From contig PBKS01000019.1 in NCBI GenBank assembly GCA_002722155.1, positions 60,687 through 124,686 on the forward strand: DNA of 64,000 nucleotides, read 5' to 3'. The notes beneath the pieces are model-generated. The model ran no database searches. It saw nothing but the letters and a program-made list of their open reading frames with translations, and had not been told where the DNA came from. Of the stretch, positions 1,265 to 64,000 are shown one piece after another. The stretch comes from Chloroflexota bacterium. Its GTDB lineage: Bacteria > Chloroflexota > Dehalococcoidia > Lucifugimonadales > UBA826. Every line of letters starts with the position of its first letter. Within the stretch, counting starts at the first letter, position 1. The position numbers and the translations under genes are program-made.

Positions 1265-2122
1265 TTACCTCTCCCTAGGGTTAAAAGCTCTACTTGAGGC
1301 TTCTCTCCATCGCAGGTGCTTAGTTTTTTCCATGAACCCTTGGTGGATTGTTGAGGAGGCAGCTATCAACCCATCAGAATAAAGTTCGGCCCTATTCCCA
1401 TGTCTATCCGTTATTAATCCGCCTGCTTCTTCAATCAATATCATTCCCGCTGCTTGATCATAGGGCTGGAGCCGATGATGAACGAAAATATCCATCCTTC
1501 CAGCCGCTACGTAAGATATCGACAAAGCAGATGACCCAATCATTCTGGCGGTCTTTAGCGAAGGCCAGATTTTTCTCAACATCTGCAATGTGTCAATGGT
1601 ACCGGAAGCAGGACCATATGCGGGGTCTGTAACCATTATCACATCTTCAAACTGTGGTACATCGCTAACTTGAATCTTTTGTTCGTTGAGGAAAGCACCT
1701 TGTCCTCTAGCCGCGTGGAACATTTCCTTGTTAATTGGGTCAAAATTAACCCCCATTACAACTTCCCCATCTTTTGCAACGGCGATTACAGTAGAGAAAC
1801 AAGGAATTCCCCAGGCATAATTTTGGGTACCATCTATAGGATCAATAATCCATGTCCATCCTGTTGTTGGATCATCACCCTTTTCTTCCTCCCCAAAAAT
1901 GCCATGCTCGGGAAAATGGGCGGCTATTTCAGCCCTGATGTGGGCTTCACATTCTCGATCTACATTTGTGACTATATTGTTTTGCCCGTTATCAGATATC
2001 TCCTTGGTCTTTGGCCACCAATCAAGTAGTATTTCTCCCGCTGAAAGGGATATTTCTCTAGCTAACTGCCACGCATTTTTACCTGATTCTGTTTCAGGTA
2101 ATTGATATTTCATTTCTCTCAA
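1265..2122 (-). CDS. Inositol monophosphatase family protein (SuhB-like)
   Basis: 285-aa ORF with IMPase motifs GEEE, WIIDPIDGTQNY and YDQAAGMILIEEAGG. Ends 2 nt before the htrA start. The ATG at 2113 is an alternative start. Confidence 0.88.
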   Translation of the reverse strand: MREMKYQLPETESGKNAWQLAREISLSAGEILLDWWPKTKEISDNGQNNIVTNVDRECEAHIRAEIAAHFPEHGIFGEEEKGDDPTTGWTWIIDPIDGTQNYAWGIPCFSTVIAVAKDGEVVMGVNFDPINKEMFHAARGQGAFLNEQKIQVSDVPQFEDVIMVTDPAYGPASGTIDTLQMLRKIWPSLKTARMIGSSALSISYVAAGRMDIFVHHRLQPYDQAAGMILIEEAGGLITDRHGNRAELYSDGLIAASSTIHQGFMEKTKHLRWREASSRAFNPRER

Positions 2123-3461: not shown

Positions 3462-3482
3462 AGATCAGATATAACTATTAGA

Positions 3483-3508
3483 CTCCGCTGGGCAGGCAAT
3501 TGCTTCCA
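3483..3508 (+). repeat. 26-nt box copy 1 (ctccgctgggcaggcaattgcttcca), just 3' of the znuA stop
   Basis: 23/26 identical to 3940..3965. gctgggcagg can pair with cctgtccagc at 3534..3543 or 3555..3564. The pairing includes a G-U wobble, which is only valid in a + strand transcript. Confidence 0.6.
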
Positions 3509-3522
3509 TAAGCACCACATAC

Positions 3523-3564
3523 TAACTATATAGCCTGTCCAGCTAACTATATAGCCTGTCCAGC
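3523..3564 (+). repeat. Perfect 21-bp tandem duplication (taactatatagcctgtccagc x2)
   Basis: Units 3523..3543 and 3544..3564 are identical. Each carries a 3' arm complementary to box copy 1. Confidence 0.9.
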
Positions 3565-3714
3565 ACCCGTACTAAGGGCATTATATCAGGTTCGGTTTTA
3601 GTCAGATTTAGGAAAAACCATTCAGGTTAATTAATAAGTTTTATACGAGTTTTAAGAATCAAAAGTAAATTTAATCACGGGCAACCTAAAACACATCCTT
3701 AAGGAGGAAATGAA

Positions 3715-3900
3715 ATGAAGTTAACAGCCTACAGTGTGAAATTAAGGAAAACAGTAGAAATTTCTGAACCCAAAATAGTTACCCTGAAAAATGGCAGAAA
3801 GGCTGTTCAGGGGGTTGCGGCAGAAGATCCTACTTCAAAGGTATTTAGGATACTAGGTGACAAGGAAGTTCCCGAGGTAGAAAAGCTAATTAATAGCTAA
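3715..3900 (+). CDS. Small basic protein (61 aa), resembles a Cys-less version of a small zinc-ribbon protein family
   Basis: Strong SD (AAGGAGG, 7 nt before the ATG). The AYSVKLRKTVE...TLKNGRKAVQGV...KVFRILG layout matches my recollection of the DUF5679-type CxxC...CxxC ribbon, but with all Cys positions substituted. Confidence 0.6.
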   Translation: MKLTAYSVKLRKTVEISEPKIVTLKNGRKAVQGVAAEDPTSKVFRILGDKEVPEVEKLINS

Positions 3901-3939
3901 TTAATGCGAAATTGAAATAGATGAACCAGTAAGAAATAT

Positions 3940-3965
3940 CTCCGCTGGGCAGACAATGGCTTCTA
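3940..3965 (+). repeat. 26-nt box copy 2 (ctccgctgggcagacaatggcttcta), 3' of the small ORF stop
   Basis: 23/26 identical to 3483..3508. gctgggcagac (3944..3954) is perfectly complementary to gtctgcccagc (4055..4065), enclosing about 100 nt. Confidence 0.6.
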
Positions 3966-4513
3966 ACCAACCATTTGACCTTTAAATCAGTCAGCAACAA
4001 CGCCGTCATACCTTAGCAACGACGACGCCATACCTAACTGCATTCAACTTCTCAGTCTGCCCAGCTCCCGGAGAACAACAGCTTCATTTAATTCTGAACT
4101 CCTTAGGAAATATGCCTTGAAACCAGTAAAATCTTTAGCTCAATTCAGTCTTATTCTAAGAAAAATTAGTATAGCTGATTTAATCAGACCAAATCGTTAC
4201 TAACCCATGAATTGTGTTTCATGAACGATAATTTGGGCCTTTAATGGCTGGAAACAAATTGACGTTGAAATTCACTGTCTCCCCCCTTGCACATTAGTAA
4301 ATATGGGGTGTACAACATATATCGTAAACGATGATCAATTTTGATTGATTTTCAGGAGTGACGGAGAGATCAAAAAAGTTATTGAATTATTAAGAAAATC
4401 CTCTCCAAGAAATTTTCCGGGGTGATACCTAAAGGCTTCGATAAAAATCGAATATAGACACCGCTTCAGGTATGGGTAGGCAAAGTGTTGGCGAGTCGGA
4501 AATCTCCAGGTCT

Positions 4514-4532
4514 GCCCTTTGAAAAAAGGGGC
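4514..4532 (+). other. Hairpin in the dnaA leader
   Basis: gcccttt / aaggggc stem of 7 bp (one G-U), loop gaaaa, followed by ttt. Lies 34 nt upstream of the dnaA ATG at 4566. Confidence 0.3.
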
Positions 4533-4565
4533 TTTAACACTGTAGGCGGTTTTGTGCAAAAATTT

Positions 4566-5984
4566 ATGGACGAAGATATTACTTTAAAAGCTAACAAAAT
4601 ATGGGAATCGGTTTTGGGTAGAGTTGAGCTCAGCATTCCAAAACCCAGCTACGACACGTGGCTTCGAAATACTGCTGGAATTACGATTGCCGCAGGTGAA
4701 CTAATTGTAGAAACCCAAAATGCTTTTGCTGCTCAATATTTAGAAGACCGTATGTTAGATATGCTTGAACAAGAACTAAGTTCTTTGACAGATTCTCAAA
4801 TCAAAATCAAATTCATAGTGAAGTCTAAAACCGTAAATTCTCAACTGCAAAAAGAAAACACAGCTACAACCCCAGATGATAGCCCAGACCACTTCACTAA
4901 ATACATAGCGGCGGAAGATAGCCCATACAAGGAAACGGTTTCAGAAGCTGTATCTGGCTTACATGTAGGCTCTAATAACTTCAATTCAAAATACACGTTT
5001 GATAACTTCATAGTCGGGAATTCCAACCAACTTGCTTATGCGGGTGCAAAGGCTGTATCTGAAAATCCAGGAACAATTTTCAACCCTTTGGTTATACATT
5101 CTCCCGTTGGATTAGGAAAAACACATCTGTTGCAAGCGATCGGGCATGAAACAACACGCCGTGGTTTAATCAATCTTTACGTGACCTCTGAAGAATTTAC
5201 CAACCACTATGTTAAAGCAATTCAAAATGGCAAAACGGAGGAATTCCGAAATAAATATAGAAACGTCGATGTCTTGTTAATTGACGATATCCAATTCCTC
5301 ATCGGAAAAGAACAAACGCAGGAGGGATTCTTCCATACCTTCAACTCGCTCCATGTAGAAAACAAACAAATAGTTGTAGCTAGTGATAGGTCCATTGGTG
5401 AACTAAAAACCTTAGAGTCTCGTATTACCTCGAGACTAAGCGGAGGACTAGTAACAGACATTCAGATACCCCAATTGGAAACCAGAATGGCCATACTCAA
5501 AGGAAAGGCTCTCCAGCAAGGATATAGAATTCCAGGGGACGTCATAGAGCTGTTAGGCAACAGAATCCAATCAAACATCAGGGATCTGGAAGGTCTACTT
5601 AATCGAGTCGTTGCTTTGGCTCAATTCCGAGATGAACTTATCACGCTGGAATCAGTGAAAGAAATGGTTGGCGAGGCCGAGACCACCAACCGAAAAATCA
5701 TTCCCGACACCCTCATTATTTCAGAAGTTTCAAATTATTTTGGAATCCCCTCTGAGGAAATAATTGGCCGCCGAAGAGGAAAACCCTATTTGGTGCCTAG
5801 GCAAATCGCAATGTTCCTTCTCAGGGAAGAAACCTCTTTGAGTTTATCTGCCATAGGAAAAATACTAGGCGGAAGGGATCATTCAACTGTGATGCACGGG
5901 CATGGAAAAGTCGCTTCCTTAATTGACGCAGATAATAAACTTCGAAGTGATATCTTAGCGATCAAAAACAACCTCCTAAATTAG
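4566..5984 (+). CDS. dnaA: Chromosomal replication initiator protein DnaA
   Basis: Walker A GLGKTHLL, box VLLIDDIQF, sensor motifs, and the C-terminal DNA-binding signature (RQIAMFLLRE...IGKILGGRDHSTVMHG). I prefer the ATG at 4566 (MDEDITLKANKIWE...) over the GTG at 4485 in the ORF track. Confidence 0.95.
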   Translation: MDEDITLKANKIWESVLGRVELSIPKPSYDTWLRNTAGITIAAGELIVETQNAFAAQYLEDRMLDMLEQELSSLTDSQIKIKFIVKSKTVNSQLQKENTATTPDDSPDHFTKYIAAEDSPYKETVSEAVSGLHVGSNNFNSKYTFDNFIVGNSNQLAYAGAKAVSENPGTIFNPLVIHSPVGLGKTHLLQAIGHETTRRGLINLYVTSEEFTNHYVKAIQNGKTEEFRNKYRNVDVLLIDDIQFLIGKEQTQEGFFHTFNSLHVENKQIVVASDRSIGELKTLESRITSRLSGGLVTDIQIPQLETRMAILKGKALQQGYRIPGDVIELLGNRIQSNIRDLEGLLNRVVALAQFRDELITLESVKEMVGEAETTNRKIIPDTLIISEVSNYFGIPSEEIIGRRRGKPYLVPRQIAMFLLREETSLSLSAIGKILGGRDHSTVMHGHGKVASLIDADNKLRSDILAIKNNLLN

Positions 5985-6033
5985 TCTATCCACTTGAATT
6001 CAATGGCTTTTAGCATATCTCAAGGTTATACGT

Positions 6034-6687
6034 ATGAGACTTATTTTAATTAGACACGGTGAAACAGAAGCCAATTTACTTAACAGATGGTCAGGTTCCA
6101 AAGACCTTGACATTACTAACCTCACCGCATCTGGAAAAGCTCAGGCCCAAAAATTAGGCGATTGGTTCAGAAAAGAAAATTTCACCCCAACCCATGTTTA
6201 TGTTAGTCCACAAAAAAGAGCAAAAGACACGGCACATCTTGCAGGACACCACTGGAACCTACCTTTCATTACCCTAGAAGATCTAAAGGAAACCGGCGCT
6301 GGAATATTTGAAGGGCTCACTTGGGAAGAAATCGAATCAAAATACCCAGAACAGGCAAGGAATTTTAAAGGCAGCAGAGATTGGTCGTTTGTAGAAGAAT
6401 CAGAACAAGAAAATGACCGAAGAGACCGAGGCAATCGAATATTGGAATTGGTACTAACTCACCACTCGGATGATGACGTTGTTGTTATGTTCTGCCATGC
6501 TGGAATCATTCAACACACTATAAGCTGTATATTCGAATCTCCCAAACTATGGGGGATAATGACAAAGAACACCGCCATCTTTGAATTTCAATTACTAATA
6601 ACTAAATGGTCAGATTCTACAAGAGAGCGATTCAATCCTACCTCCTGGCGTGTTCTAAGATTTAATGAGGATCCTCATCTAAATTAG
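6034..6687 (+). CDS. Histidine phosphatase family protein (phosphoglycerate-mutase-like)
   Basis: N-terminal RLILIRHGETEAN catalytic RHG motif. 217 aa. Confidence 0.8.
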   Translation: MRLILIRHGETEANLLNRWSGSKDLDITNLTASGKAQAQKLGDWFRKENFTPTHVYVSPQKRAKDTAHLAGHHWNLPFITLEDLKETGAGIFEGLTWEEIESKYPEQARNFKGSRDWSFVEESEQENDRRDRGNRILELVLTHHSDDDVVVMFCHAGIIQHTISCIFESPKLWGIMTKNTAIFEFQLLITKWSDSTRERFNPTSWRVLRFNEDPHLN

Positions 6688-18759: not shown

Positions 18760-19692
18760 ATGATTAGATATTCTCTAGGACGATTGCTCGGACTTCTGGG
18801 ATCTATTTTAATTATTTCCTTGATTCTTTTTGTAGCCGTCCGATGGTTACCCGGTACCCCTTGGAACGAAGCAGAAATCCCACTGCAAGGGGCCGCCAAA
18901 GAAAATATGATGAGAAAATATGGGCTAGATCAACCCATTCATGTTCAGTACGCTAAATATGTATGGAATCTTCTTCATCTAGATTTGGGTAATTCCTTCA
19001 TATACAGGACAGATACGGTTTGGGAAACGATCGCTCGCGGGTGGCCAGCAACAGCGAAGATTGGAGCTTTCACTCTCTTAATAGCTTTTTCTATGGGCAT
19101 TCCAGTGGGTATAATCGCAGCGCTTCGTCAAAATAGTCTACTCGACTATACAGTCACCTTTTTAGCCACAACGGGAATCACAGTCCCAAACTTTGCAGTG
19201 GCAGTCTGGTTGGTCATGTTTGTCTCAGTAAAAATGGACCTTCTCCCTACTCAAGGCTGGGGAACATGGCAGCATTTAGTTCTACCTGTGATAGCTTATT
19301 CTCTAGCCCCTACCAGCCTCATAGCGCGTTTTACAAGAGTCAGTATGTTAGAGGCTATGAGATCCGATTATATTCGCACCGCACGAGCTAAAGGATTAGC
19401 TGAACCGGTAGTAATACTACGTCATGTATTTAAAAATGCCCTAATCCCCATTATCACACTGGTAGGTCCTCTAATTCCAAACCTTATGACAGGTAGTATT
19501 TTTATAGAAAATACTTTTGGTATACCAGGGATTGGTCGACATTTTGTAACCAGTATTTTTGACAGAGATTACCCCGTGATAATGGGGGTGTTCATGTTAG
19601 TAGCCGTTCTCTTTGGCTTAACCTACTTTATAAGCGACATACTCTATACATGGGCCGACCCAAGAGTCAGATTAACGGATCGTAGACAATGA
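18760..19692 (+). CDS. ABC transporter permease (DppB/OppB-like)
   Basis: 310 aa, about 6 TMS. The N-terminal IRYSLGRLL and the EAA-loop region SDYIRTARAKGL are typical of the family. Confidence 0.88.
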   Translation: MIRYSLGRLLGLLGSILIISLILFVAVRWLPGTPWNEAEIPLQGAAKENMMRKYGLDQPIHVQYAKYVWNLLHLDLGNSFIYRTDTVWETIARGWPATAKIGAFTLLIAFSMGIPVGIIAALRQNSLLDYTVTFLATTGITVPNFAVAVWLVMFVSVKMDLLPTQGWGTWQHLVLPVIAYSLAPTSLIARFTRVSMLEAMRSDYIRTARAKGLAEPVVILRHVFKNALIPIITLVGPLIPNLMTGSIFIENTFGIPGIGRHFVTSIFDRDYPVIMGVFMLVAVLFGLTYFISDILYTWADPRVRLTDRRQ

Positions 19693-30407: not shown

Positions 30408-31424
30408 TTGAAGAGCACATCAATATATGACACATTTAATCGGCCCCTACGAGATCTCAGAATCTCTGTAACAGATCGTTGTAATTTCCGGTGCCCATAC
30501 TGTATGCCTGCTGAGATTTTTGGTGACCGATATGAATTTCTTCCTAGAGCAGATTTACTGACTTTTGAAGAGATAAGCCGCATAGTAAAGATTGCCGTTC
30601 AATTAGGAGTAACGAAAGTTAGAATCACCGGCGGTGAACCGTTGGTGCGTCAAAATATAGAAGAACTGGTGCAAATGATTGCTGAAGTAGAAGGGATTGA
30701 AGATTTAGCTATGACCACCAATGCCTACCTGTTATCGGGGTATGCGCAGAAATTAAAAAAAGCAGGGTTGCACCGAATAACGGTAAGTTTAGATTCCTTA
30801 GACGATACTGTTTTCCAGAAAATGAATGGAAGAGGATTCAGTACTGCTCGAGTTTTGGATGGAATAAAAGAAGCGAAAGAAGCAGGGTTACAGCCAATTA
30901 AAATCAATGCTGTTGTGCAGAAAGGGGTTAATGATCATACTGTCATCGAATTAGCAGAGTGGTGTAAGAATAATGGACATATACCCCGGTTTATCGAATA
31001 TATGGACGTTGGCACGTTAAATGATTGGAAGCTCCAAGAAGTTGTTCCTGCGAATGAAATTGTTGACTTAATTGGACAGCGTTTCCCAGCTGACCCCATA
31101 GTACCTACTTATCAAGGGGAAGTCGCTCAAAGATATCGTTATAGGGACGGGCAAGGTGAATTTGGTGTTATCTCTTCTGTATCTCAACCATTCTGCGGAG
31201 ATTGCTCACGGATGAGACTTTCTCCTGAAGGAAAGGCTGTCACTTGTCTTTTTGCGGAGTCGGGTACTGATTTGAGGGAATGGCTAAGAAATGGGGCAAC
31301 AGATGATCAAATTAAACAAACCATTGTTGGTATATGGGGAACCAGAGAGGATCGATATTCTGAAGAACGATCTGAAGAGACGGTAAAAAGAAAGAAAGTT
31401 GAGATGTACCATATTGGCGGCTAA
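30408..31424 (+). CDS. moaA: GTP 3',8-cyclase MoaA (radical SAM)
   Basis: 338 aa. LRISVTDRCNFRCPYCMP radical-SAM cluster and a C-terminal CGDCSRMRLSPEG second cluster. Confidence 0.92.
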   Translation: MKSTSIYDTFNRPLRDLRISVTDRCNFRCPYCMPAEIFGDRYEFLPRADLLTFEEISRIVKIAVQLGVTKVRITGGEPLVRQNIEELVQMIAEVEGIEDLAMTTNAYLLSGYAQKLKKAGLHRITVSLDSLDDTVFQKMNGRGFSTARVLDGIKEAKEAGLQPIKINAVVQKGVNDHTVIELAEWCKNNGHIPRFIEYMDVGTLNDWKLQEVVPANEIVDLIGQRFPADPIVPTYQGEVAQRYRYRDGQGEFGVISSVSQPFCGDCSRMRLSPEGKAVTCLFAESGTDLREWLRNGATDDQIKQTIVGIWGTREDRYSEERSEETVKRKKVEMYHIGG

Positions 31425-31871: not shown

Positions 31872-32378
31872 GTGTCTAAAGCCAAAAAATTAACCCATGT
31901 TAATGAAACCGGCACTGCTAATATGGTGGATGTAGGATCAAAACAAATCACTAAAAGAATTGCGGAAGCTAGAGCCGAAGTGTTCATGCAGGAAGAGACC
32001 ATGGCTTTAATTCGAGATAATTCTTTTGAGAAAGGAGACGTAATTGCTACGGCTCGTATTGCGGGTATCATGGCGGTTAAAGAGACGTCCAGCTTGATAC
32101 CATTGTGCCATCCTCTACCAATTAGCCAGGTAAAATTAGATTTTCAGTTAGATGAGAATAATAGGAATGTTAAGATTGCAGCCACAGTCAAAACCAATGC
32201 TAAAACTGGGGTTGAGATGGAAGCATTAACGGGAGTATCGATAGCAGCTCTCACAATCTACGATATGTGCAAAGCTGTTGATAGAAGTATGCATTTCCAC
32301 GTATGGCTTGCCTCCAAATCCGGTGGTCAGTCAGGCGATTTTGTCTTTGATCCACCTTCCGCACGTCAAGGCAGTTAA
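31872..32378 (+). CDS. moaC: Cyclic pyranopterin monophosphate synthase MoaC
   Basis: 168 aa, GTG start. LTHVNETGTANMVDV, IPLCHPL and TGVEMEALT motifs. Confidence 0.92.
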   Translation: MSKAKKLTHVNETGTANMVDVGSKQITKRIAEARAEVFMQEETMALIRDNSFEKGDVIATARIAGIMAVKETSSLIPLCHPLPISQVKLDFQLDENNRNVKIAATVKTNAKTGVEMEALTGVSIAALTIYDMCKAVDRSMHFHVWLASKSGGQSGDFVFDPPSARQGS

Positions 32379-35515: not shown

Positions 35516-36568
35516 ATGACAGATGCTAATGAGTCTGGCCTGAAAACAATAGGGACTGATCCATATGTCGGTGAAACCCCACAAGAAGCCCTTGGAAATT
35601 GGGTGACTCCGAATTCCCTCTTTTACGTGCGGTCTCAGTTTGATTATCCTGAAATTGATGAGAAGTCTTGGAAATTACAAGCTTCTGGATCAGGCGGAAA
35701 TGAAATAGCTATTAGTCTGGATGAGTTAAAACAACTGCCAAGACACACCCTAACAGTTACGTTGGAATGTGCCGGTAACAACAGAGGCGATTTAAATCCT
35801 CCAGCTCCAGGAAACCAATTTAGTAATGGTGCCGTCAGCAATGCGGTTTGGTCAGGAACCTCCCTAAGTTCAGTATTATCGAAAATGGAATTGAATAAAG
35901 ATGTCGTAGAGATTCTTTTTGAAGGTGCTGATGTTGGATCACCTTCTGCTGATAAGGAGCCAGAACCTTATTTGCGGAGTTTACCCATTGAATTGGCTAA
36001 GCACCCAGACACACTTTTGGCTTATGAAATGAATGGTGAAGCATTGCCATTGGAGCATGGTTATCCCGTAAGGCTCATTATCCCGGGTTGGTATGGCATG
36101 GCGCATGTGAAATGGGTTAATAAAATAACAGCCTTGACAGAGCCTTATTATGGCACCTTTCAGGGAGAAAAATATGTACTACGGTATCAAGATGGATCTG
36201 AAAAGCCGGTTCAGGAAATACAAGTAAAATCTGCGATAACCGCCCCAAGTGAGGATGAATCCTTAACTTGTTGCGAAGATTACAATATCGAAGGACATGC
36301 GTGGGCTGGGCGAAACGGTATTGCGAAGGTTGAAATTTCCGTAGACGGTGGAAAGGTATGGACACCTGCTGAACTTGTAGGGCCTTCCGAGCAATATGCT
36401 TGGCGTCAGTGGAATTTGCAGTGGAAACCTGAATCAAGTGGTGAGTACACTCTTTTATCCAGGGCGACAGACCAGAAAGGTAATGAACAACCGACAGAAA
36501 CGTTGTGGAACGAGTTAGGCTATGCTGTTAACGGCCAAAAAGGTGTGCACATAACGGTATCTTCTTAA
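35516..36568 (+). CDS. Sulfite-oxidase-family molybdopterin oxidoreductase
   Basis: 350 aa. FYVRSQF, the Mo-ligand Cys context TLECAGNNR, YPVRLIIPGWYG, and a C-terminal Ig-like dimerisation domain. Confidence 0.85.
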   Translation: MTDANESGLKTIGTDPYVGETPQEALGNWVTPNSLFYVRSQFDYPEIDEKSWKLQASGSGGNEIAISLDELKQLPRHTLTVTLECAGNNRGDLNPPAPGNQFSNGAVSNAVWSGTSLSSVLSKMELNKDVVEILFEGADVGSPSADKEPEPYLRSLPIELAKHPDTLLAYEMNGEALPLEHGYPVRLIIPGWYGMAHVKWVNKITALTEPYYGTFQGEKYVLRYQDGSEKPVQEIQVKSAITAPSEDESLTCCEDYNIEGHAWAGRNGIAKVEISVDGGKVWTPAELVGPSEQYAWRQWNLQWKPESSGEYTLLSRATDQKGNEQPTETLWNELGYAVNGQKGVHITVSS

Positions 36569-36602
36569 AAACAATATAGGTTTCAAATTAGGGAAGGGTT
36601 TA

Positions 36603-37154
36603 TTGGCTTGGATAGAAGAAGATTCTAGATACTCAGACGTTGCCAACGTTATTAAATGTATGTCACTTAATGAAGAGGCCATGCATGCTGTTTGGGATAT
36701 GGGGAATAAAATTACCTTTGGTTCTTCTTCATTGACTAGAGCTCAAGAAGAAATAATAGCGACAGTTGTATCCTCCATAAATCATTGCAAGTATTGAACT
36801 GTTTCTCATGGAGAGTATCTTCGTCAAGCTACAGAAGATCCTGAAATGGCGTCGATTATCATGCAGGATTATGGTAATGCAACTCTTGATCCCGAAACCT
36901 TGGCTATCGTTGAGTACGTTGAAAAATTGACTGTACGGCCATCTGAAATAACTGAAGAGGACATTCAAACACTTAGAAAGGTAGGATTGTCAGACCATCA
37001 GGTTCTATCTGTCGTAATGATTACAGCTATGTTCGCCTTCATGAACAGACTCGCTGACGGACTAGGGGTCCAAATAGAAGATTCCAAGGGTGACTTTGTC
37101 AATTCTTGGTTTCAAACAAACGGGCCGATAGGATCTTGGTTGAACGTATCCTAG
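36603..37154 (+). CDS. AhpD-like / carboxymuconolactone-decarboxylase-family peroxidase-related protein with in-frame TGA (candidate selenocysteine) at 36795..36797
   Basis: ORFs 36603..36797 and 36846..37154 share one frame. Read through, the 183-codon product has the family layout (MAWIE..., ...FMNRLADGLGV). The TGA replaces the second Cys of the C-x-Y-C-x3-H motif (INHCKY-TGA-TVSH). TTG start after AGGGAAGGG. Confidence 0.75.
36817..36839 (+). promoter_or_regulatory. Candidate bacterial SECIS hairpin
   Basis: aucuuc / gaagau 6-bp stem (plus a possible inner gu/ac pair) starting 19 nt after the UGA. Confidence 0.4.
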
Positions 37155-37184: not shown

Positions 37185-37382
37185 TTATAATTCTATAGAA
37201 GCTGGGTCTATTTTTTTGGAACGGATCCACTCATCAATATCTGCTTTAAAAAATCTCCATTGATGTCCTACTCTATTTGCCGGAATATCTCCTGATTTTA
37301 GTAGTTTGTAAATTGTCATGCGATCCAACTGCAAATATTGTGCCAGCTCTTTGGTAGTCATAAGCCCACTGTCATTTGTCAC
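37185..37382 (-). CDS. Excisionase-family (MerR-superfamily) helix-turn-helix DNA-binding protein
   Basis: 65 aa. LMTTKELAQYLQLDRMTIYKLLKSGDIPANRVGHQWRF matches the 'DNA binding domain, excisionase family' pattern. Confidence 0.75.
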   Translation of the reverse strand: MTNDSGLMTTKELAQYLQLDRMTIYKLLKSGDIPANRVGHQWRFFKADIDEWIRSKKIDPASIEL

Positions 37383-62735: not shown

Positions 62736-63893
62736 TTAAGCTAGTTTTTTGATCTCGTTTGCGGCTTCCCCAAGGGTGTCAACTAGAATGATATCTAGAT
62801 TAGATTGGGCAAGAATCTCCCTCCCCTCATCAGAATTTGTTCCCAGCATTCTTACAACCATAGGCCTGATTCTGTCCGGTTGTTGCTCTGCAGCTAGCAA
62901 GAAGCCTCTTGCAGCTATATCACATCATAATATTCCTCCAAATAGATTTACTAAAACTGCCTTTACGCTGTCATCGGATAGGACTATATTGAGAGCTTTT
63001 GCCACCTTTTCTTCATTAGCTCCTCCACCGATATCCAAGAAGTTAGAAGGTGAAGCCCCAGCAGAACTTGTTACATCCATCGTAGCCATAGCTAGACCGG
63101 CACCATTTACTATACATCCGATAGTTCCATCTAATTTCACGTAGTTTATATCTGCAGATCGAGCTTCCACTTCAAGAGGATCCTCTTGAGAAAGATCTGT
63201 CATTTCTTGTATGTCCGGTTGCCTAAAAACGGCATCGTCGTCAATATCTAATTTCGCGTCAGCAGCTAAAACTTTCCCGTCCTTAGTAATTACTAAGGGG
63301 TTTATTTCCACTAATGAAGCATCTGTTTCGATGAATGCTCTATACAAGTTTTGGATCAGACTTGTGACGGCACGGATATATTCCTGTCCAAGATTGAGAC
63401 CGTAGGCTATTTTTCTACCTTGGAAAGGTTGTAGGCCCAATACTGGGTCGATTGGAATTTGGATTATCTTTTCTGGTGTCATTTCCGCCACTTCTTCTAT
63501 ATTCATCCCACCTGCCTCACTCGCGATTATGACTACTCCTTTGGAAGCCCCGTCTATAGCCATACCTAGATACAGTTCTTTCTCTATATCGATACCTTCT
63601 TCGATAAGCACAGAGTTAACAGGAACTCCTCCTGGACCAGTCTGAAAAGTGACAAGATTTGTTCCGATTAGAGATTCCGCGGCTTTTTGGGCAGATCCCG
63701 GAGATTCCACAATTTTAACCCCACCTCCTTTTCCTCTGCCTCCAGCATGTACTTGTGCCTTAACTACGACAGTGCCACCCATATCAAATGCCGCCGCCGC
63801 CGCCTGGCTTCCAGTTTTGGCTAATTGACCCTTTGGGATGGGAATCCCGTATTTTCCAAGTATTCCTTTTGCTTGGTATTCATGCAGTTTCAT
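62736..63893 (-). CDS. sucC: Succinyl-CoA synthetase beta subunit, interrupted by an in-frame TGA at 62925..62927 (recoding, mutation or sequence error)
   Basis: MKLHEYQAKGILGKYGIP ATP-grasp N-terminus, 322 aa up to ...VNLFGGIL. After the TGA the same frame continues for 62 codons: CDIAARGF...PMVVRMLGTNSDEGREIL...KKLA, then TAA at 62736..62738. This gives the canonical 385-codon length. Confidence 0.9.
62892..62916 (-). promoter_or_regulatory. Bulged hairpin 9-33 nt downstream of the sucC UGA (SECIS-like)
   Basis: mRNA AGCU-GCAAGA-[GGCU]-UCUUGC-U-AGCU. The stem is 6 bp upper plus 4 bp lower, with a single bulged U and a GG-initiated tetraloop. Confidence 0.35.
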
Positions 63894-63937: not shown

Positions 63938-64000
63938 TGGCGGAGGGTGTGGGATTCGAACCCACGATACCCGTTAGGATATGCCAGTTTTCAAGACTGG
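63938..64000 (-). tRNA. tRNA-Ser (anticodon UGA), 5' part cut by the window edge
   Basis: 3' end ...gtgggttcgaatcccacaccctccgcca (T arm, acceptor and CCA), long variable arm, anticodon loop CUUGAAA. Confidence 0.85.

Follow-up and report, generated by a model that had tools for sequence, protein, structure and literature searches.

A conserved in-frame UGA at the redox cysteine of an AhpD-like gene of marine SAR202 bacteria: a probable selenoprotein divided by gene calling

Since the analysis of the Sargasso Sea in 2005, AhpD-like proteins that contain a CxxU motif have been recognised as a selenoprotein family (PMC1088965). The family "AhpD-like 1 (COG2128), CxxU" was the fourth most abundant in the Global Ocean Sampling data, with 299 selenocysteine (Sec, U) and 902 cysteine forms (PMC2398784), AhpD-like genes account for 9.5% of the selenoprotein genes in the Tara Oceans data (PMC9402790), and a 2026 review places the family under TIGR01926 with the motif CxxU (PMC13188914). 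Here, we describe a gene of this kind in a 64,000-nucleotide stretch of DNA from a Chloroflexota bacterium of the class Dehalococcoidia (contig PBKS01000019.1, positions 60,687 to 124,686 of the forward strand; G+C content ~41%), which we call the window. The interval 36603..37154 of the window is, with high confidence, a single gene for an AhpD-like thiol/selenol oxidoreductase (TIGR01926/COG2128) of marine SAR202 bacteria in which an internal UGA is read as Sec. As in the described members of the family, the Sec position is the second Cys of CxxC, a hairpin with a G in its apical loop lies just downstream within the coding sequence, and the source is marine. The window gene is no different in kind, and it is the attribution to SAR202/Dehalococcoidia that is specific here. 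A preliminary description of this DNA had supposed the family to be known already, which the literature bears out (PMC1088965, PMC2398784, PMC13188914). Family, Sec position and mechanism are textbook for marine selenoproteomes, and the gene is an ordinary, mis-annotated member of a well-known family.

The gene is divided by open reading frame (ORF) calling. Two ORFs, at 36603..36797 (64 aa) and 36846..37154 (102 aa), occupy one common frame and are separated by the TGA and 16 sense codons. Read through, they give a product of 183 aa that contains VVSSINHCKY-[TGA]-TVSHGEYLRQ and ends at the TAG at 37152..37154, all of which reproduces on the sequence what the preliminary description had reported. 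That description had the product begin MAWIEEDS; the start codon is TTG and not ATG, and the initial M is conventional only. Relatives start with TTG, GTG or ATG without any change of position, and a purine-rich segment shortly 5′ of the TTG may be a ribosome-binding site, judging from the sequence (Table 1). The same division is found throughout the protein catalogues. Among 5.8 billion proteins searched we found ~60 close relatives (66-99% identity), each catalogued only as a C-terminal fragment of 102-123 aa, together with one N-terminal fragment ending in HCKY, confirming the earlier expectation that ORF calling mis-annotates the gene.

For profile scoring of the read-through protein, Cys was put in at the TGA. 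The protein scores 143.6 bits against the TIGR01926 "peroxidase-related enzyme" model (cutoff 81.8), with the match extending over profile positions 25-176 of 178, and 39.5 bits against PF02627, the Pfam carboxymuconolactone decarboxylase (CMD) family (cutoff 23), which places it in both families and upholds the assignment first proposed for it. It also passes TIGR00778, ahpD_dom (37 bits, cutoff 27.8), and one relative, a fragment, carries the COG2128 label. Among solved structures, the homologues 2oyo, 6k40 and 3c1l match with E values of 4e-31 to 4e-28, and in the alignment with them the TGA coincides with the second Cys of C-x-Y-C-x-x-S/A-H-G, as had been claimed from a C-x-Y-C-x3-H motif. 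The full redox signature of the window protein is E50-x11-C62-x-Y-U65-x3-H69, of which C62, Y64, the TGA and H69, together with V67, S68 and E50, do not vary among the six lineages of our alignment A1. Because it exceeds the TIGR01926 threshold and shares the motif, the window gene is a member of the AhpD-like CxxU family.

The closest experimentally studied relative is DR1765 of Deinococcus radiodurans, an AhpD-like protein of the same subfamily (PDB 6k40; E 2e-29 over residues 3-156) that has E-x11-C-x-Y-C-x-x-S-H-G in common with the window protein. Along with 2oyo, 3c1l and 2pfx, which are uncharacterised peroxidase-related proteins, it differs in having Cys where the window has UGA and in an N-terminal extension of ~30 residues. 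A DR1765 knockout is sensitive to H2O2 and is poorly complemented by mutants of the CxxC cysteines (PMC8945050). The window protein also shares the CMD fold and E-x11-C-x-x-C-x3-H with AhpD of Mycobacterium tuberculosis (TIGR00777), but it is not a member of that family (21.3 bits against a cutoff of 191.95), and no gene for AhpC or for a lipoamide enzyme adjoins it. M. tuberculosis AhpD is the lipoamide-dependent reductant of AhpC; its second Cys is probably nucleophilic and its first probably the resolving Cys, and in AhpD-type enzymes the Glu of E-x11-C has a catalytic role. A further family, NF041238 (AhpD_rel_CFYUT), resembles the window protein in the local motif C-x-Y-U-T, down to the position of Sec. 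Its model is a two-part one of 357 positions, of which the window protein matches the C-terminal half only (positions 175-341), with a score of 74 bits that is below the cutoff of 175.

The TGA stands at the identical codon in 47 of 47 related loci that cover it, comprising 25 distinct sequences with 47-100% protein identity to the window. The loci retrieved (numbered here with the prefix L) came from an exact-protein look-up (13), species-representative genomes (9), metagenomes (23) and four extra assemblies, and those that cover the codon include eight GTDB species-representative metagenome-assembled genomes (MAGs) named as SAR202 cluster, Dehalococcoidia or Chloroflexota. The most divergent lineage that bears the TGA (L042-L044, TCRY-TGA-TMSHGGFLRQ) is 47-48% identical to the window protein. 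Conservation of the TGA is thus far beyond chance. The ratio of nonsynonymous to synonymous substitution rates (dN/dS) is ~0.05 upstream and ~0.056 downstream of the TGA in pairwise comparisons (12 pairs usable, dS being near saturation in many pairs); purifying selection acts across the TGA, and both halves are translated.

Downstream of the TGA lies a conserved hairpin with the geometry of a bacterial Sec insertion sequence (bSECIS). The published constraints are an apical loop of 3-9 nt on an upper stem of 4-16 bp, a G in one of the first two loop positions, a distance of 16-37 nt from the UGA and a minimum free energy (MFE) of -7.5 kcal/mol or lower (PMC13188914). With a 3-nt loop that starts G-U (GUA), 7 bp, 17 nt and -8.4 kcal/mol, the upper stem-loop at 36808..36824 lies within the ranges of this bSECISearch model, whose archetype is Escherichia coli fdhF, and 23 of the 25 distinct sequences satisfy all four constraints. 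Its six core pairs are paired in 25/25, the changes among them being G-C/G-U and A-U/G-U exchanges and, in L042, one compensatory A-U to G-C replacement, which also alters the encoded residues (EY to GF). The lower stem of the full hairpin (36799..36834) is less conserved than the upper one; its pair at alignment columns 18/51 changes from UA to AU in 4 sequences and is unpaired in 9. Among four-fold codons of invariant residues, third-position transversions were found in 0/3 in the stem versus 35/39 elsewhere (P = 0.003), which points to a constraint at the RNA level on top of the coding one. We base the SECIS case on geometry and conservation and not on thermodynamic stability, and regard 36808..36824 as a predicted SECIS-type element and a candidate for function. 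The preliminary description had singled out another hairpin, at 36817..36839, as lying near the UGA. That structure can indeed form in the window, but we rejected it as a SECIS, since an internal pair is unpaired in 15/25 sequences, no covariation is seen and its loop, at 11 nt, is larger than the 3-9 nt that the bSECIS model allows; the conserved element is the overlapping stem-loop at 36808..36824.

These features suggest a mechanism that would follow the described systems closely. When the ribosome reaches the UGA, the mRNA stem-loop at 36808..36824 would bring in SelB-GTP-Sec-tRNA(Sec), Sec would be inserted at codon 65, and translation would go on until the TAG at 37152. Homology to AhpD and DR1765 suggests that Sec65, at the position of the second Cys, would attack and that Cys62 would act as the resolving residue, and His69 and Glu50 would assist the pair, roles that we carry over from M. 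tuberculosis AhpD. In reducing its substrate, a peroxide or an oxidised partner protein, the enzyme would then pass repeatedly through a selenenylsulfide state.

Several observations weigh against a Sec-decoded gene with a functional SECIS. The window hairpin is not unusually stable, since the 60-nt fold (-11.9 kcal/mol) has a z-score of -0.13 relative to shuffled sequences. The stem lies on codons of invariant amino acids, and part of its conservation therefore comes from the coding constraint. Two of the 25 sequences miss the bSECIS constraints, L015 because its loop is UUA and L016 because its MFE is -6.5 kcal/mol. Between 36700 and 36950, no Rfam SECIS family matched at the gathering threshold or at E<=10; the hairpin has no sequence similarity to the curated families, and binding of SelB is a prediction. 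Curated bacterial SECIS models in Rfam are lineage-specific to our knowledge, so this non-match says little. None of selA, selB, selD or a tRNA-Sec gene is present in the 64-kb window or in ~10 kb on each side of it (from contigs of the same genotype), and a tRNA scan of 15 related loci found no tRNA-Sec. The nearest full-length homologues, finally, have Gly at the Sec position in 15/15 retrieved cases (38-45% identity), so that the usual Sec/Cys pairing holds only with distant relatives.

In L015 (MAG RS820, PBWI01000073.1), codon 71 is changed from GAG to GAT (Glu to Asp), which turns the apical-loop G into U and makes this the sole sequence that lacks the conserved loop G. Just past window position 64000, a 90-nt tRNA gene (8659..8748 in L055) sits directly upstream of sucC, straddling the right edge of the window. 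It is a normal tRNA-Ser (anticodon UGA) and not a tRNA-Sec. As for Sec decoding in the class as a whole, indirect support comes from two Dehalococcoidia MAGs that rank in the top ten of BSepDB bacteria for selenoprotein richness (PMC13326102).

The Gly-type homologues (Table 1) are SAR202-type proteins of 187 aa with the motif C-R-Y-G-x-[ML]-T-H. Cys occupies the Sec position in the PDB homologues, in proteins P0080-P0083 and in L022, and no Cys orthologue was found in the Sec clade down to 47% identity. The statement that homologues carry Cys at the TGA, on which the preliminary description had made its reading depend, is thus true of distant homologues and false of the nearest full-length ones. 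Judging from its motif (TCRY-TGA-TMSHGGF), the Sec-containing lineage L042-L044 looks intermediate between the Sec and Gly types. Orthology of the Gly-type locus by synteny was also considered and is unsupported, the neighbouring gene for a thiamine pyrophosphate (TPP) enzyme being only 23% identical. A change that did run from Sec to Gly would mean that, when Sec decoding was lost, a mechanism based on a two-residue selenenylsulfide gave way to a function that uses one Cys or is not redox at all.

Much of the evidence just listed could be accommodated if the UGA were read through without any Sec machinery, a near-cognate or suppressor tRNA inserting Trp, Cys, Arg or Gly to give a full-length protein that is not a selenoprotein. 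The lack of Sec machinery in the window and its flanks, the Gly of the closest full-length homologues and the unremarkable stability of the hairpin are all compatible with this possibility, and a genetic code in which UGA encodes Gly exists in other bacteria. Within the window, however, TGA is the stop of 9 of the 55 long ORFs, including ATGA overlaps of neighbouring genes, which excludes a general reassignment of TGA. The three genuine TGA stops named in the preliminary description (at 19690, 31837 and 56612) each terminate a long ORF, and its view that the recoding is local and not a changed code is well founded. Furthermore, P0075, the sole Gly homologue whose DNA was inspected, has a real GGG codon at this position, a hairpin of bSECIS geometry is conserved through changes that preserve its pairs, and the UGA takes the place of the catalytic Cys in a family for which Sec forms are documented by the hundred (PMC2398784). 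We consider read-through by other means very improbable, and Sec highly likely to be the inserted residue.

The in-frame stop, and its splitting of the gene by gene callers everywhere, could also mean that a nonsense mutation has inactivated an AhpD-like gene and left a pseudogene. One locus, L037 (contig Ga0114993_10000001, 532 kb; gene 1501..2043), has an additional in-frame TAG at codon 42 (..FGS*ALTR..) besides the conserved TGA, and may itself be a true pseudogene or contain a sequence error. Apart from it, no locus shows other stops or frameshifts. Retention of the same TGA in 25 distinct sequences, the most divergent of them 47% identical, a dN/dS downstream of the TGA equal to that upstream, and the absence of any overlapping gene that would account for the downstream conservation effectively refute inactivation, to which we assign a very low probability. 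It is equally hard to believe that the locus encodes two small proteins, as the output of ORF and gene callers would have it, namely a 64-aa peptide that stops at the TGA and a 102-aa protein whose translation starts afresh at ATG 36846. This split is untenable because the 16 codons from the TGA to that ATG encode an invariant V-S-H-G-E-Y-L-R block with the catalytic His in it, and because the ATG is not conserved, giving way to an Ile codon in L013 and to a Phe codon in L009; the TIGR01926 profile and the CMD fold, moreover, extend across both parts.

That TGC or TGT was misread or misassembled as TGA, which had been named as grounds for abandoning the Sec reading, is refuted and has next to no probability, because four independent assemblies from different samples carry a gene 100% identical to that of the window, TGA included, and all other related loci have the TGA as well, even though the window does hold one private C-to-T change. 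That change lies in sucC, the gene for the beta subunit of succinyl-CoA synthetase, which was tried as a second selenoprotein candidate. A tidy SECIS-like hairpin follows its in-frame TGA. The candidate was rejected, as the TGA replaces a conserved Arg (GGIL-R-CD) that is present at this position in all relatives, every one of them full length, the shortened product is not on record anywhere in a protein look-up, and three independent assemblies, identical over 1157 of the 1158 sucC bases, have CGA, a single C-to-T difference. Either a private variant or an error of sequencing explains the sucC TGA, which is not a recoding and serves as a negative control for the TGA of the AhpD-like gene. The other in-frame TGA candidates from a scan of the window lay in non-coding frames or strands or at ordinary gene junctions such as that of purH, which ends normally.

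Table 1. Coordinates of the features discussed. Positions are those of the window, except for the Gly-type set, which is given by locus.
Feature	Position	Strand	Remarks
AhpD-like (TIGR01926) read-through coding sequence	36603..37154	+	TTG start, predicted Sec codon 65, TAG stop, 183 aa
In-frame UGA, predicted Sec codon 65	36795..36797	+	TGA in 47/47 covering loci; second Cys of CxxC in solved homologues
Redox motif C62-K-Y-U65-T-V-S-H69	36786..36809	+	From sequence, alignment A1 and PDB alignment
Glu50 codon	36750..36752	+	11 residues before Cys62; invariant in alignment A1; aligned with Glu of 2oyo, 6k40, 3c1l
Upper stem-loop of predicted bacterial SECIS	36808..36824	+	7 bp; GUA apical loop 36815..36817; 17 nt after UGA
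Full hairpin with weaker lower stem	36799..36834	+	MFE fold; 36799..36802 with 36831..36834, 36805..36806 with 36827..36828
Hairpin of the preliminary description	36817..36839	+	6 bp, 11-nt loop; present in window, not the conserved element
Purine-rich AGGGAAGGG	36590..36598	+	4 nt 5′ of TTG; possible ribosome-binding site, from reading of the sequence
Sulfite-oxidase-type molybdopterin oxidoreductase gene	35516..36568	+	Pfam Oxidored_molyb and Mo-co_dimer; ends 35 nt upstream of the AhpD-like gene
HTH_17 (excisionase/MerR-like helix-turn-helix) gene	37185..37382	-	65 aa; Pfam HTH_17; convergent with the selenoprotein gene
sucC (succinyl-CoA synthetase beta)	63893..62736	-	In-frame TGA 62925..62927, codon 323
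Gly-type set	L046-L048 (gene 6001..6564)		Proteins P0049-P0054, P0056, P0060-P0062, P0072-P0075

In the main clade, the gene order is RNA recognition motif (RRM) protein, sulfite-oxidase-type molybdenum (Mo) enzyme, AhpD-like(Sec), convergent HTH_17 and major facilitator superfamily (MFS) transporter (Table 1). The most constant neighbour across Sec-type clades is the HTH_17 gene, more so than the upstream Mo-oxidoreductase. In nearly all Sec-type loci that extend far enough, it is the next gene downstream, with 74-86% identity in divergent lineages, and it is absent at L042-L044; a regulatory link to the selenoprotein gene is possible. The Mo enzyme adjoins the selenoprotein gene in the main clade only and is absent or displaced in a clade ~70% identical to the window. 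Because it is not adjacent there, a universal functional link with the Mo-oxidoreductase was rejected. A few kb upstream of this oxidoreductase are two genes for biosynthesis of the molybdenum cofactor, moaA and moaC, separated by an RNase H gene (30408..31424 and 31872..32378), an order that is kept in L001 and L002. Elsewhere in the window, dnaA is at 4485..5984, the ~1 kb before it (3462..4484) holds no ORF of at least 120 aa, and the GC skew, negative at first, becomes positive near 12 kb; the window is probably near the replication origin.

The absence of Cys orthologues down to 47% identity raises the possibility that Sec is obligatory in the SAR202 clade. One could go further and propose that Sec is obligatory there, that a related lineage has swapped in Gly, and that the Sec enzyme and HTH_17, joined in the main clade by the Mo enzyme, make up a module of dark-ocean SAR202, so far undescribed, for redox chemistry or for the detoxification of organosulfur compounds; we think this combined proposal unlikely. 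The consequences for annotation are more immediate. The public records that we found give fragments of 64 aa and ~107 aa or a "hypothetical protein," and because the gene is split or mislabelled in every one of them, SAR202 gene catalogues miss a conserved redox enzyme. A literature search found no paper with both "SAR202" and "selenoprotein." The locus provides direct sequence evidence for Sec decoding in an abundant dark-ocean lineage, a statement that we did not find in the searchable literature. A lineage that decodes Sec needs selenium, and at the confidence we place in this gene, the same would hold for these SAR202 bacteria.

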